Source of the DNA: a virus
Taxonomy: Duplodnaviria > Caudoviricetes
Reading direction: 5' to 3' (one strand)
IMG/VR virus record: IMGVR_UViG_3300005670_000019
Length of the DNA stretch: 64,000 nt
The notes beneath the pieces were generated by a model, which did no database searches, was not told where the DNA came from, and saw only the letters and a program-made list of their open reading frames with translations. The first letter of the stretch is position 1, and each line of letters starts with the position of its first letter. The translations under genes and the position numbers were made by a program. This document shows positions 1 through 54,184 of this stretch, piece after piece.

Positions 1-634
1 GGAACCTGTCATTTCCAAGAATACGGAAATGAGTAACTTGCCAGTTCTCCAAAATCTTTCCTCCATGAGTCAACCATTTGAAGCGGACGGCGTATGGATC
101 TTCTGGATCATATCCTTCCACTCTTTCAACTTGGTCAACAGGAATCGGAACAACGTTGATTATACCATGTTCTGGAATGATTTCATTGTAAAGAAAGAAA
201 TCTCCGAACTTACAGAGATTTCTTACCCATGGTCTGAGATTGAATTCAACATTGATGATATCATAAAAAAGTTCATCTAAGGTTTTCTTGATTTCACTAT
301 TTTCACTAAAGATATGAAGACTTCTGCCTCTATCATCAACAGATGAGATTTCGTCTGCATAAATGTTCAAAGCAGTAGCAATCTCAGCAGTGTTTTCCAT
401 TTCAACGAATTCACTGTAACGAGCGAAACGATCAATCATTCCATAAGAACCAAGAACTGAGAATGGAGAAGCCTCTCTTCCAAATGGTGCTCCTGCTCTG
501 TATCCAATGTTGTTTCGAAGGATGTCATTATCGAACATAGCCTTGGTATCGATGTTCTTGATTTTTCTTGTAATCGACGGACCAGATCGAAATAACTTTG
601 TCAGTCTCTTGTAGAAGTCTTTAGGATTTGCCAT
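1..634 (-). CDS. Portal protein (T4 gp20-like), N-terminal part; runs off the window edge
   Basis: Not in the ORF track. Manual translation from ATG 634 gives MANPKDFYKRL...RYSEFVEMENTAEIATALNIYADE...WVRNLCKFGDFFLY...ENWQVTHFRILGNDRF, motifs typical of gp20-like portals. Confidence 0.85.
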   Translation of the reverse strand, partial: MANPKDFYKRLTKLFRSGPSITRKIKNIDTKAMFDNDILRNNIGYRAGAPFGREASPFSVLGSYGMIDRFARYSEFVEMENTAEIATALNIYADEISSVDDRGRSLHIFSENSEIKKTLDELFYDIINVEFNLRPWVRNLCKFGDFFLYNEIIPEHGIINVVPIPVDQVERVEGYDPEDPYAVRFKWLTHGGKILENWQVTHFRILGNDRF

Positions 635-33616: not shown

Positions 33617-33691
33617 TGGAGCCCGCGACTGGAATCGAACCAGCTCTCTCCTTATTACAAGTAAGGTGCATGACCATTGTGCTTCGCGGGC
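33617..33691 (-). tRNA. tRNA-Thr(UGU)
   Basis: CCTTA-CT-TGT-AA-TAAGG; CCA encoded. Confidence 0.92.
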
Positions 33692-34155
33692 GCATCTTCA
33701 AAACCTTTGTTTCCTTTGCGAAATCTCTTAGAGGTTTTCTCCCCTCCTTTTCTTCCCCAATTCCGGAAATTGGGCGTTAGAGCATGGCAATTCGGACAAA
33801 GAACTCTCAGATTTTGACGCTGGTTATTTGTGTGGTCGCCATCTATATGATCGATTTCCAATATCGATCCACCACATGCTCTTGTCTTGCAAAAGCCACA
33901 TTGAGAACACTTGAACTCACTTTCTGCCAAGAGACGCTGACGTCTCTTTTCGCGACTAAGTTGTTCGAATGGAACAGTTTCCCACTTTACATCAGTCCAC
34001 TGATTGGACGCGGCGCCCCTTCTCTTGCGCATTGCTTCATAAAATGCGTCAGACTTAGGAGGTGGCTCTTTTCTATCCGGATTGCTTTTGCAGAAAGTTT
34101 GATGATATCCTATACCCCTCTTGGAGAATTCGTTGTTGCAATATTGACATTTCAT
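33655..34155 (-). CDS. HNH endonuclease; stop codon inside tRNA-Thr
   Basis: LEIDHIDGDHTNNQRQNLRVLCPNCH. Confidence 0.9.
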   Translation of the reverse strand: MKCQYCNNEFSKRGIGYHQTFCKSNPDRKEPPPKSDAFYEAMRKRRGAASNQWTDVKWETVPFEQLSREKRRQRLLAESEFKCSQCGFCKTRACGGSILEIDHIDGDHTNNQRQNLRVLCPNCHALTPNFRNWGRKGGEKTSKRFRKGNKGFEDAPAKHNGHAPYL

Positions 34156-34187
34156 GACACTAACTATGGCAGAGCAAGGATACTTCT

Positions 34188-34217
34188 ACCGTTGCTCTAC
34201 CGTTGAGCTAGAGAGGC
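34188..34217 (-). pseudogene. 5' half of a split Thr-like tRNA
   Basis: GCCTCTC-TA-GCTC-AACGGTA-GAGC-A-ACGGT, then the sequence diverges; promoter at 34235-34263. Confidence 0.8.
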
Positions 34218-35230
34218 ATTTTGTGCTATGATCAACAATAGCAAGAAACCGACGAAATTTCAAGGAAAATCATTCAGTTCTTTTTTTTGACCCAATCTTG
34301 GAACTTTCCCCAAATGAGTGGGTTATCGAGGTGCAAAGATTTGTAAATCCAAAGTCCAATAAATGGCATTGAATACCAAAAAAGAATATGATAACCCCAC
34401 AAGGAAACACTTCCAACAAGTAGAAGTGACACTGCAAGAGAAATCAAAATCAAAATTGGAATAGCAAAAAAGAAAGTAAACCCCCAAATTGATACATGCG
34501 GATTTTCAAAAAGTTCCTCAACAAGAGCCATCCAAACAAAAAGGATCGTGCGAAATACTCGAAGTGGATCAAACTTCCATTTGATTTCATTTTTTGGTGG
34601 CTTCGATGGCGTACGATATCCGCCATTTTCATTGTTGTTTGTTGTCATTGGTGTTGACCTTTCAAAACGTCATCAATCCCTTGGTGAGATAAGTTCAAAG
34701 AACCATGTAAAGACGGTTTTGATCGTATTCTTCCAATCTCTTTTTAGGTAAGTCCTAGCAACCCATGCACAGAAAAATCCTGTGATGAAGTAAGTTATCA
34801 GAGCTAAGGCAAAAGCAAAAGTCCAACTCATAATACCTTCACAAACTTTCCGCGATTGAAATCATCTAATGGACAAAAGAATCTTCCAAAGATCATTTCT
34901 TTTGAAAATGGTGCTCTTTTTTTAGTTGAGAACTTTGAGTCTGTAGTCTCCAAAATAAACAAAGAAACAGAACTCCATTCCTCCGCACCCTTTCGAACAT
35001 AAATACGATCGATTTGAAAAATCGAATCTTTTGGAAAAGTCTTGTTGAATGCGTGTTTTTGAAATGTAGGGTTGGTCCATTTTGTTGGAAATGGAACATT
35101 TTCTGCCTCAAAAAGACACATGTTGCGGTGATCAACAATGACTGAAAATGTCCAATCATCAGGATTTTTAATTTTTGTTCCAAGTTCCGGAATGAAAAAC
35201 ATAATGAACCTTTCTCAGTTGAGAGAAATT

Positions 35231-46070: not shown

Positions 46071-46114
46071 TGGTGCTCAGGGCGGGATTCGAACCCGCAA
46101 GCCGTTTATAGGCA
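46071..46114 (-). pseudogene. 3' half of a split tRNA-Leu
   Basis: Variable arm GCC-TATAAAC-GGC, T-arm GCGGGTTCGAATCCCGC, then CCTGAGC-A-CCA. Confidence 0.88.
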
Positions 46115-46119
46115 TAAAT

Positions 46120-46206
46120 TGGTACCGAGAACAGGATTTGAACCTGCACCCACGTAAAGTGGACAACGCTCTCAACGTTGCGGGTCTGCCATTCCCCCAC
46201 CTCGGC
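46120..46206 (-). tRNA. tRNA-Leu(GAG)
   Basis: CAACG-TT-GAG-AG-CGTTG; long variable arm; CCA encoded. Confidence 0.92.
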
Positions 46207-46660
46207 ATTTTTTGTTTTTACGACCTCTCCAACCATCGGTTTGACTATGACAGTTAGGACATAGTAACCTTAGATTTGAAAGATTGTTATTTTTCCTATT
46301 TCCATCGATATGATCTAATTCCAATACTATTTTTTGATTATTCCACAAATCCAAAGAACACATTGCGCATTTATAATGCAACAATTTTTCCTTCAAAAGC
46401 CTCTTTTTTAGATTATCTGATTTGACAAAATGTTTATTTGACAAAATCTCGTCTAGAGAAATTTTATTGTGTGGAGACTTCCCAAGATTTGAACCTTTTC
46501 CCAAGAAATGGGAAATGTCAATATTCCAATTTGATATCCATTTTGTTATGGTGGTATAATTTCCACCAGATTCGTTCATATTCATCTTGAATATGACTTG
46601 TCGGAGTGACGTGGAACTTTTCACACATTCCTCAAGTTTTTCTTTTGAGAATTTCGGCAT
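46172..46660 (-). CDS. HNH endonuclease; stop codon inside tRNA-Leu
   Basis: LELDHIDGNRKNNNLSNLRLLCPNCH. Confidence 0.92.
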   Translation of the reverse strand: MPKFSKEKLEECVKSSTSLRQVIFKMNMNESGGNYTTITKWISNWNIDISHFLGKGSNLGKSPHNKISLDEILSNKHFVKSDNLKKRLLKEKLLHYKCAMCSLDLWNNQKIVLELDHIDGNRKNNNLSNLRLLCPNCHSQTDGWRGRKNKKCRGGGMADPQR

Positions 46661-48755: not shown

Positions 48756-48863
48756 AAAGTAAGTAATCAGGATCAACAGCGCATCGCACCGACCCCTAAG
48801 ATGTGCGCCAAACTCGCCCACAACAATGACAGGGGTGTTGACTGATTACTTTTCAAACTTTAG

Positions 48864-48935
48864 CGTCTCTGGAAGGATTCGAACCTACGACCGTCAGCTT
48901 AGAAGGCTGCTGCTCTTCCTCTGAGCTACAGAGAC
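48864..48935 (-). tRNA. tRNA-Arg(UCU), no encoded CCA
   Basis: CAGC-CT-TCT-AA-GCTG. Confidence 0.9.
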
Positions 48936-49603: not shown

Positions 49604-49980
49604 ATGGTGACGCCTCTCAACAGTATTGTTGGTTTGCGTCGGTGGATGATTTCCACGGTACATCATCATAATGACAGACTTCGCTGTCATTATCAAGCAA
49701 AGTTTTATGAAAACGAAACTTTGCGAAGTTAGTATTGCTCTTCCGCTACTCTGGCGAAGGAACCTTTTTATAAAAGCATTTTGTAGAAAGTTTTACTCTG
49801 TTGTCGAGTGCCACCTCGACAGCAATTAGTCTCTCATTCTACATGCTTCTTTTGTATGGGTTCGGCAAAGAAATTAATGCTTACGCGCTATAAACATTAG
49901 TCCCTTGCATATCTTTCCGGAGAAAGGACTCCTATCCAATTCTCAATCAAGATACCGAAAGAACTGGTTCAAAAAACAAC

Positions 49981-50050
49981 TACAAACAAAGGGAATCGAA
50001 CCCTCTTCTTCCGGATTGGAGTCCGGATGCACACCATTTGCATAGTTTGC
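49981..50050 (-). pseudogene. tRNA pseudogene (Gly- or Trp-like) with a 6 nt anticodon loop
   Basis: CCGGA-CTCCAA-TCCGG; intact T-arm; weak acceptor; no CCA. Confidence 0.6.
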
Positions 50051-50057
50051 AGCTATT

Positions 50058-50133
50058 TGGTTCAGGAGGTAGGATTCGAACCTACAACAACCAGATTCAA
50101 AGTCTGGGACTCTAACCATTGAGCTACTCCTGA
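50058..50133 (-). tRNA. tRNA-Gln(UUG)
   Basis: CCAGA-CT-TTG-AA-TCTGG; CCA encoded. Confidence 0.93.
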
Positions 50134-50552
50134 ATATTTAGATACCAATTTTGTTCTCTAGCTGTCTTTCTTTTGTGACAGTTTGAACAAAGAATCTGAC
50201 ATTTTTTAATTTCTTTTTCTATTGATTTCCATGAATATCCTTCGATGACCATTCTAGAAATATTTTGAGTTTTTGTCGAAGGATTCACATGATCAAATTC
50301 AAGAACAATCGGATCTTTTTCTCCACAATCAACACATGGATGAGTTTGTAAAAACTCAAACACTAGTTTTCTTATCAAGATTTTTCTGGTTTTATTTCTT
50401 TCCAAGAATTTGTTTCTATTATTTTCATAGAAACATTTCAAATTTTTCTTATTGCACTCTCTACAGTAGGATTGTAGGAGATTTTTCTCTTGGTTTTTCC
50501 AAGAAAAACTATTCAGGTTTTTTTCTTGTTTGCATCTTCCACATTGTTTCAT
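50124..50552 (-). CDS. HNH endonuclease; stop codon inside tRNA-Gln
   Basis: PCVDCGE...VLEFDHV...KCQILCSNCH. Confidence 0.88.
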   Translation of the reverse strand: MKQCGRCKQEKNLNSFSWKNQEKNLLQSYCRECNKKNLKCFYENNRNKFLERNKTRKILIRKLVFEFLQTHPCVDCGEKDPIVLEFDHVNPSTKTQNISRMVIEGYSWKSIEKEIKKCQILCSNCHKRKTAREQNWYLNIQE

Positions 50553-50582
50553 ATGGAAATATAGTTTTGAAAACTATAAAAT

Positions 50583-50620
50583 GTTCAAAGCCTTTTGTCT
50601 TACCATTAGACGAACCCCGA
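50583..50620 (-). pseudogene. 5' half of a decayed tRNA-Gln(UUG)
   Basis: TCGGGGT-TC-GTC-TAATGGTAA-GAC-A-AAAGG-CT-TTG-AA, then degenerate up to the HNH ATG. Confidence 0.8.
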
Positions 50621-50626
50621 AAAAAT

Positions 50627-50730
50627 TGGCAGTGGGGATTGGATTTGCACCAATATCCTTATTACGTCGTCAAAAAATCTCGTTCGTATTTGCCTTCAAC
50701 GCATTGCTCTAACTTATGAGCTACCCCACC
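50627..50730 (-). ncRNA. tRNA-like RNA with an enlarged anticodon arm
   Basis: GGTGGGG/CCCCACT-G-CCA acceptor, GCTC/GAGC D arm, ATTGG-TGCAAAT-CCAAT; about 28 extra nt in the anticodon arm. Confidence 0.65.
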
Positions 50731-51214: not shown

Positions 51215-51617
51215 ATGTCAAGAAAACGAAATCCAAAAAATTGGTGTCTGAAATGTAGTAGCCGATGTAGAAATTCTAGAAGCAATTTATGCAGTATTTG
51301 TCATTCACAACAATTAAGTGTGAATTTTGGACAAACATATCGAATTGCTGATTTCAGCCAACTTCAATCTAGACACAGATTTCAACCTATACGAAATCAT
51401 GCCAAAAGAGTTATGAACTCGTCAAACAAAGAAAAAAATTTGCAATGTTTGTGGTTACAACAAACATGTTGAAGTTGCTCATCTAAAACCGATTCACTCT
51501 TTCCCCAAGGAAACATTATTAGAAACAGTAAACAACATTTCCAATCTGTTATATTTGTGTCCCAATTGTCATTGGGAACATGATAATGGGTTATTAGATG
51601 CAACAACTTCACAATGA
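51215..51617 (+). pseudogene. HNH endonuclease broken by one extra A in an A7 run (51432-51438)
   Basis: Removing one A gives ...KEKICNVCGYNKHVEVAHLKPI...NNISNLLYLCPNCHWEHD. Confidence 0.8.
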
Positions 51618-53658: not shown

Positions 53659-53733
53659 TGGTGGGTCGCCCCGGAATCGAACCGGGCTCGGTCAGATTAA
53701 AAGTCTGGTGCATCACCTTGATGCTAACAACCC
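53659..53733 (-). tRNA. tRNA-Lys(UUU)
   Basis: CAGA-CT-TTT-AA-TCTG; CCA encoded. Confidence 0.92.
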
Positions 53734-54065
53734 AATTTTAGCAATCCTTCGTGGATTTCAGCATGACAGTTTGCACACACCAAAATACACTTATCAAGTT
53801 CTTTTTGAACTTTTTCCCAAGACATTCCCCAATTTCCAGAAATTTGGAAATCTTTTTCTTTTGGGATCAAATGGTGAAAGTGAAGAGCTTGTTTAGCACG
53901 ACTGTATCCACAAATTGAACAACAGTTTCCTTTGTATTTGTAGATTTCTTCTTCTCGAAGCCTTCTTCGTCGAGCAACAAGACAAGAATTACAAGTTTTG
54001 TTTCTGTGACCTTTTGCCCTATTTGGTGTGTAGGTTCGACCACAGTCTTCGCAAGAAACTTCCAT
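53724..54065 (-). CDS. HNH endonuclease, leaderless; stop codon inside tRNA-Lys
   Basis: CSICGY...ALHFHHL...KCILVCANCHAEIH; promoter TTGAAA-N17-CATAGT (54073-54101) ends 7 nt before ATG 54065. Confidence 0.88.
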   Translation of the reverse strand: MEVSCEDCGRTYTPNRAKGHRNKTCNSCLVARRRRLREEEIYKYKGNCCSICGYSRAKQALHFHHLIPKEKDFQISGNWGMSWEKVQKELDKCILVCANCHAEIHEGLLKLGC

Positions 54066-54108: not shown

Positions 54109-54184
54109 TGGTGGACGCGAGAAGAATCGAACTTCCCACACAGTGCTTGCAAGGCATCGTCGCCCCCTTGGTACATGCGCGCCC
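54109..54184 (-). tRNA. tRNA-Ala(UGC), second copy
   Basis: TGC-CT-TGC-AA-GCA; G3:U70; CCA encoded. Confidence 0.8.

Follow-up and report, generated by a model that had tools for sequence, protein, structure and literature searches.

The window (the whole 64,000-nucleotide stretch of viral DNA analysed here) belongs to the contig, about 300 kb long, of an uncultured phage that has genes for terminase and Gad2. In its array of more than 30 minus-strand tRNA genes, one tRNA-Gln(UUG) gene breaks off behind its anticodon loop, an HNH endonuclease gene follows, and this gene runs into a second, intact tRNA-Gln(UUG) (Table 1). The arrangement raises the question of how a nuclease gene came to lie between a ruined tRNA gene and a sound one with the same anticodon, and whether the three belong together. 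We regard the insert as a free-standing (intron-less) homing cassette, which would cut a tRNA gene and rescue the loss with a spare tRNA, and we put the probability of this reading at roughly three in four. A selfish nuclease could in this manner occupy an RNA gene that tolerates no insert, and do so without a self-splicing intron, by bringing a spare.

Table 1. Features of the tRNA-Gln(UUG) locus, in positions of the window.
Feature	Position	Strand	Remarks
5' stump of the original tRNA-Gln(UUG)	50583..50620	-	covers the first 38 nt and reaches one base beyond the anticodon loop; non-functional
Old anticodon loop	50584..50590	-	also left half-site of the putative operator; overlaps the putative -35 box
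Cassette leader, 30 nt, 17% GC	50553..50582	-	missing from the HNH-free allele
Inverted anticodon-loop copy (6/7 matches)	50565..50571	-	12 nt past the loop; right half-site of the putative operator
Sigma-70-like promoter match, 9/12, spacer 18	50558..50587	-	stops 5 nt short of the ATG
Perfect 19-bp palindrome, 9-bp arms	50560..50578	.	spans the promoter spacer; may serve as a 5' hairpin or as another binding site
HNH endonuclease gene, 142 aa	50124..50552	-	PF01844; ATG at 50552
Replacement tRNA-Gln(UUG), 76 nt	50058..50133	-	U1-A72, encoded CCA
Right junction, discriminator and CCA	50058..50061	-	common to old and new alleles
346-nt stretch, leader and N-terminal two-thirds of HNH	50238..50583	-	lost in the degenerate allele; kept in the window

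The first-pass annotation had described the upstream copy as a tRNA-Gln that is intact through its anticodon and then degenerates over about 30 nt. Its first part holds: from 50620 on the minus strand, the acceptor strand, the D arm, the 5' strand of the anticodon stem and the loop with TTG can all be recognized. The gradual degeneration does not, as 38/38 nt match the gene of an HNH-free sister strain (L240) and the likeness then breaks off abruptly at 50583/50582. Because the stump consists of the first 38 nt of that gene unchanged and then breaks, the old tRNA-Gln gene is truncated, not decayed. The 30 nt before the ATG were rejected as remains of a tRNA, being a leader of 17% GC with a promoter-like site and palindromes, and their likeness to the old 3' half is weak (16/32 with gaps, shuffle p=0.03). 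That the upstream copy is no functional tRNA agrees with its lack of a T arm, an acceptor 3' strand and CCA; no tRNA is called over it by ARAGORN, nor by Rfam at E<=10.

The identification of the following open reading frame as an HNH gene stands (PF01844, E=1.7e-5, 25.3 bits against a cut-off of 21.4), as does the position of its TAG (50126-50124) at positions 8-10 of an intact, divergent tRNA-Gln(UUG). The gene is intron-less, with no Rfam intron match, no 3' exon and a stop codon of its own. The tRNA into which it runs is called by both ARAGORN and Rfam, has the top score of the window (72.5 bits) and folds into a canonical cloverleaf. No other UUG decoder is called in the window, where the long minus-strand frames use CAA more often than the other Gln codon (206 vs 74). 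Old and new anticodon loops are, as had been read, identical (7/7 nt), and the two genes are 64% alike with gaps when the old gene is taken from the L066 allele. Transcription of the HNH gene probably starts from a leaderless promoter at the sigma-70-like match; promoter-like sites in the region number 5 against 2.7 ± 1.5 in shuffles, which is weak alone, and near-consensus promoters occur at the equivalent place in many HNH relatives.

Comparison with sister strains, fetched via variants of the neighbouring 195-aa protein, makes the history of the site legible; one of their contigs carries the label bioreactor sludge. Three alleles occupy one site, namely an empty one (5 contigs), a filled one (7 contigs and the window) and one with the HNH deleted (13 contigs), counts which stem from non-independent samples picked by protein look-up and do not represent frequencies. 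The HNH is optional, missing from the same locus in L066 and in L240-L243, and these strains hold one intact tRNA-Gln(UUG) of 75 nt (L066) or 74 nt (L240-L243) between the same flanks, so that the like-for-like replacement proposed in the first-pass annotation is borne out by the comparative check. The stump is identical to the L066 variant at 36/40 positions and to L240-L243 at 38/38. In the filled allele, 522 nt (50582 to 50061), comprising the leader, the 142-aa zinc-finger HNH and the divergent tRNA-Gln(UUG), replace the 3' half of the old gene (positions 40-72), and the alleles rejoin at the discriminator and CCA. The 13 HNH-deleted contigs share a 346-nt deletion that extends from the edge of the loop into the HNH and leaves the new tRNA in place. 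Homing genes typically pass through a cycle of invasion and later decay of the nuclease, and the allele set fits an invasion followed by such decay. The locus is unusually complete in that empty, filled and degenerate alleles are present in one phage population, and the exact sequence of the presumed substrate is therefore known. One further contig (L041 1-20) starts exactly at a short repeat common to the deletion junction and the tRNA start (window 50137), hinting at a fourth allele from which the HNH stub is also gone. Scans of viral contigs with the stump, the old 3' half, the new tRNA and the 195-aa neighbour protein returned nothing useful.

The arrangement is not confined to this phage population. 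We collected 169 non-redundant relatives of the HNH from viral contigs, genome contigs and cultured phages, and 72 of them have a co-oriented tRNA at the stop, i.e. one starting within -45 to +60 of the HNH stop codon (in 18 cases at exactly the offset of the window); the other 97 are without one. Ten other loci combine a stump, as called by a detector of tRNA 5' halves with 1.9% false calls in shuffles, with a downstream tRNA, and stump and new tRNA have the same anticodon in 10/10, covering six anticodons (p<1e-5; the best of 200,000 permutations reached 7/10, and permuting anticodons within the stump set reached 10 once). The stumps of the family stop 0-5 nt beyond the loop. In seven loci the acceptor strand of the stump still finds a 7/7 pairing partner (G-T allowed) 22-34 nt downstream of the new tRNA. 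Anticodon-keeping swaps also took place at Lys(UUU) and Arg(UCU) in the same phage population, and at Gly(UCC) in the Streptomyces phages Tribute and EGole. Relatives of the HNH protein occur in cultured actinophages, and Tribute has an HNH and a tRNA-Gly(UCC) that is unlike that of EGole up to the T stem and identical beyond it. The interval lost in Tribute (positions 1-48) and that lost in the window (40-72) overlap at about 40-48. In Jada, Sham and the contig L006, an intact tRNA of the same anticodon remains directly upstream of the cassette. In Patescibacteria-type contigs, several loci have housekeeping genes (SecF, CCA/polyA polymerase, cytidylate kinase) as neighbours, and Arg(UCG), which accounts for 19/72 downstream tRNAs (L154, L156, L160, L191, L200 and others), is often found in Patescibacteria contigs among such genes. 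Since a tree of 63 proteins is mostly unresolved, we claim neither a donor nor an order of anticodon switches.

Some minor features of the family may be recorded here. The anticodon loop of Arg(UCG) resembles a T loop. Both tRNAs of Sham (L237 782-853 and 1337-1409) are annotated as Trp, and ARAGORN reads their anticodon as TGG (Pro), so that the annotation is probably a mislabel. Two sister HNHs with different tRNAs, Glu and Gln (L007 and L013), share a perfect 16-bp palindrome beside the ATG.

The architecture of the protein suggests how it might recognize a particular tRNA gene. An N-terminal Cys4 finger (C4, C7, C30, C33) is followed by a long helix and by a Cys4-HNH domain (C73, C76, D87, H88, C122, C125, H126), the zinc and catalytic residues are conserved among 65 relatives, and the same three parts appear in a structure model with a pLDDT of 96.4. 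The protein is predicted to form a homodimer via its catalytic domains, with a score of 0.53 (best control 0.01), contacts agreeing to 100% and a pLDDT of at least 84; the mark applied is reached by 20/30 solved pairs and by 1/23 single chains, with the zinc riding along uncalibrated, and the pass may owe something to likeness to solved HNH dimers. In the modelled dimer, central active sites and fingers on long arms would suit half-sites 12 bp apart. Foldseek gives no PDB match at E<=0.001, and a wider structure search matches residues 1-39 with the opening repeat of Hpy99I at Z 6.0 and an rmsd of 1.5 A, a modest and partial likeness. Among the relatives, covariation with the anticodon was seen at column 41 for position 35 (z 7.6) and at columns 24 and 27 for position 36 (z about 4.5), values obtained with kinship ignored and taken here as leads.

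A second line of evidence comes from the leaders, which contain the anticodon loop, 12 nt, and an inverted copy of the loop. The spacer of 12 was first seen in 11 stump loci, where the matches peak at this distance (52/77, equalled by 0/5,000 shuffles) and where the motif is specific for the cognate loop (p=0.0004). It was then tested on 52 held-out loci, in which the peak falls at 12 again, with 435 matches against 389 ± 8 (p<1/3000). The excess persists when the Arg(UCG) loci are left out (305 against 273 ± 7) and when one locus per anticodon is drawn (median p 0.003), and among the cultured phages the motif has 14/14 matches in Sham and Tribute and 13/14 in Jada. An origin of the inverted copy as a mere decayed T loop was rejected, as permuted loops give a poorer fit than the cognate ones. 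When the motif is superimposed on a tRNA gene, its dyad falls at positions 44/45 and hence within the lost interval; in the leader, the motif overlaps the promoter-like site placed for a leaderless transcript. The intron endonuclease I-TevI of phage T4 represses its own gene via an operator that resembles its target (PMC2988022), and by analogy we infer that each HNH may bind the DNA of the anticodon loop of its own tRNA.

Under the cleave-and-rescue reading, a homing event would proceed as follows. During mixed infection, the HNH homodimer would bind the DNA of the cognate anticodon loop via its N-terminal zinc finger and cut the resident gene on the 3' side of the loop, a few bases away, at tRNA positions of about 40-48. 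Repair from the donor would copy the cassette in, using the flanking homology and the loop at the left end of the cassette, and the spare tRNA of the same anticodon, itself a poor substrate, would render the loss harmless. The two inverted loop copies over the promoter would act as an operator by which the HNH represses its own gene, and after fixation the HNH would decay and the new tRNA stay. For the cut at positions 40-48 the balance tips slightly in favour; the clustering of the junctions at the loop could instead reflect microhomology. Against the scheme stand the 7-nt loop, which the new tRNA retains, the intact same-anticodon tRNAs beside the cassettes of Jada, Sham and L006, and the 97/169 relatives that have no tRNA at the stop. 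A family-wide immunity feature was found neither in the distance from loop to T arm (14 or 15 nt in both sets) nor in positions 39-52. About evenly poised, in our estimate, is a wider generalization, according to which homodimeric HNH proteins of ~140 residues, spread over phages and bacterial chromosomes (notably of Patescibacteria), have been retargeted to some 20 anticodon loops via zinc finger and helix. Each would cut only its cognate tRNA gene just 3' of the loop, swap in a fused immune tRNA and repress itself via two inverted loop copies, amounting to a natural cleave-and-rescue drive with a readable protein-DNA code.

The strongest competitor is provided by SegB of phages T4 and T6, a GIY-YIG homing endonuclease of the tRNA cluster that cleaves tRNA genes and spreads by gene conversion, and whose gene, like the one described here, is intron-less, lies among phage tRNA genes and is missing from sister phages (PMC2330249; PMC13096335). 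The HNH might likewise cut elsewhere in the array, or at any T loop, so that the tRNA swap would be mere co-conversion and the matching of anticodons a product of selection and of recombination via the shared loop. Such a course is lent some plausibility by T4 SegB, whose cleavage of many tRNA genes at a T-loop motif leads to co-conversion of the region (PMC2330249), and by the habit of free-standing enzymes to cut far from their own gene (PMC2988022), besides the intact same-anticodon tRNAs next to some cassettes and the lack of an immunity feature. It leaves unexplained, however, why the leaders carry two inverted copies of their own anticodon loop even where there is no stump, and why the lost intervals converge on positions 40-48, and we consider it unlikely. 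Nor does the element belong to the SegB type by its parts, since PF01844 HNH is the only match, GIY-YIG is absent, and the cassette leaves the resident tRNA truncated and overlaps with the new one. SegB sits between tRNA genes, recognizes a T-loop motif shared by many tRNAs and attacks genes of T4 itself, whereas the cassette of the window is a zinc-finger HNH inside or over one tRNA gene, is fused to the replacement and appears tuned to one anticodon loop.

Alternatively, the tRNA might be the selected cargo, a divergent tRNA-Gln that resists a host anticodon nuclease, with the HNH as passenger or helper. Phage tRNA variants do neutralise tRNA-cutting defences (PMC11464382; PMC13096335), and more contigs (13) were recovered with a dead HNH and the new tRNA than with either other allele. 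The anticodon loop nevertheless does not differ between the old and the new tRNA, the family also occurs at tRNA genes among housekeeping genes on bacterial contigs, and homing genes, too, are expected to lose their nuclease once fixed; we therefore hold this account to be still less probable than a SegB-like one, even though the cargo and homing readings are not mutually exclusive.

A tandem duplication of tRNA-Gln, with decay of one copy and insertion of an unrelated HNH in between, would accommodate the weak likeness of the leader to the old 3' half (p=0.03) and the 75% likeness of the new gene to the tRNA-Gln(CUG) of the same phage. The stump, however, shows 0 changes in 38 nt when the new gene differs at about a third of its positions, no strain has two copies, and the layout recurs with six other anticodons, all of which makes such a history very improbable. 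Least credible of all is an intron or integrative element whose removal would restore the old tRNA, for although group I introns and integrase elements are known to reside in tRNA genes and seven relatives keep both old tRNA halves around the insert, at the window locus the old 3' half is gone, so that nothing can be spliced back, and ORF and tRNA fill nearly the whole insert, which has neither an intron match in Rfam nor an integrase.

Other known systems resemble the proposed homing cassette in part. I-TevI has a target-like operator overlapping its own promoter, but it is a monomer of the GIY-YIG class, is encoded in an intron and has one operator (PMC2988022), whereas the putative operator of the window consists of two inverted 7-bp loop copies 12 bp apart, as would suit a dimer. 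An intron-encoded homing endonuclease was rejected for the window, the 3' half of the old tRNA being missing and no intron family matching. Comparable as well are mobile endonuclease ORFs of fungal mitochondria (Allomyces, Glomus), which are also intron-less, break a host gene, leave the native piece as a stump and supply a divergent piece, in their case a foreign 3' end of atp6, atp9, cox2 or nad3 (PMC3630166). Those ORFs rebuild a hybrid protein gene in frame, whereas the cassette arrives with a complete RNA gene of its own, and the old gene is given up. An integrase element at a tRNA attB was likewise rejected: there is one ORF only, the 5' half of the host gene is dead and the intact tRNA is wholly new. 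Each chain of the restriction enzyme Hpy99I, a dimeric beta-beta-alpha-Me nuclease, contains two Cys4 zinc modules, of which the first reads the major groove and the second performs catalysis (PMC2699513). The HNH of the window shares such modules but aligns with Hpy99I over residues 1-39 only; a helix of about 40 residues parts its modules and would space the half-sites far apart, and no methyltransferase gene lies next to it.

HNH genes are the commonest ORFs in the tRNA arrays of actinophages, mycobacteria and cyanobacteria and have been proposed to diversify or spread them; the accessible portions of these reports treat the association alone, without stumps, matched anticodons, operator or empty alleles (PMC5966550; PMC8421152). 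The openly accessible literature yielded no description of a nuclease fused to a replacement tRNA. Homing of the kind proposed here would offer a mechanism for this often noted and unexplained link between HNH genes and tRNA clusters, and a concrete one for the patchy and divergent tRNA content of phage arrays. The putative operator motif predicts a binding sequence and a cut position for each member of the family, and the cultured pair Tribute and EGole permits a direct test of homing. If specificity tracks the anticodon, the family would be a set of naturally occurring, very small nucleases that differ in their 7-bp half-sites.

HNH genes or tRNA swaps were noted at several other sites as well. 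The first of these bears on the meaning of like-for-like replacement: at the Leu site (46071-46660, compared with L035 13951-14038), which keeps both halves of the old gene in the window, the empty allele has the rare anticodon AAG and the cassette tRNA has GAG, so that 'like-for-like' denotes the same decoding job and not always the same triplet. At the Lys cassette (53659-54065, minus strand, compared with L035 7412-7502), HNH-free strains have a different tRNA-Lys(UUU); the whole gene is swapped without a stump, and its HNH actually begins with the ATG at 54065. The window itself represents the empty allele at an Arg site (48863-48935), where other strains (L037 2960-3444) have a different tRNA-Arg(UCU) followed by an opposite-strand HNH of 125 aa. 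A Thr case (33617-34240, minus strand) consists of a 5' stump of D-arm length and an HNH ending in the anticodon loop of a tRNA-Thr(UGU), behind which a T arm and an acceptor strand pair with the stump. Between tRNA-Thr(CGU) and tRNA-Gly(UCC) lies a frameshifted HNH pseudogene (51215-51617, plus strand), which is missing from L035/L036, the tRNA-Gly being unchanged there. Strain-specific ORFs beside tRNA genes were also seen in L066 (8490-9113, 10757-11434 and 13551-13934), one of them with a PD-(D/E)XK match, and are possibly other mobile nucleases.

Finally, three tRNA-like genes of the window deserve mention. The first (50627-50730, minus strand, 104 nt), with an Rfam score of 38.8 bits, G73 and CCA, was missed by ARAGORN and can be read as a tRNA-Ser(UGA) with a very long variable arm, although the predicted fold differs. 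The second (49980-50051, minus strand) is well folded, has an anticodon loop of 6 nt and is kept in L035, L047 and L066. The third, at about 54109-54184 on the minus strand, is a probable tRNA-Ala(UGC) with G3-U70 and an odd D arm, and was missed by both ARAGORN and Rfam.
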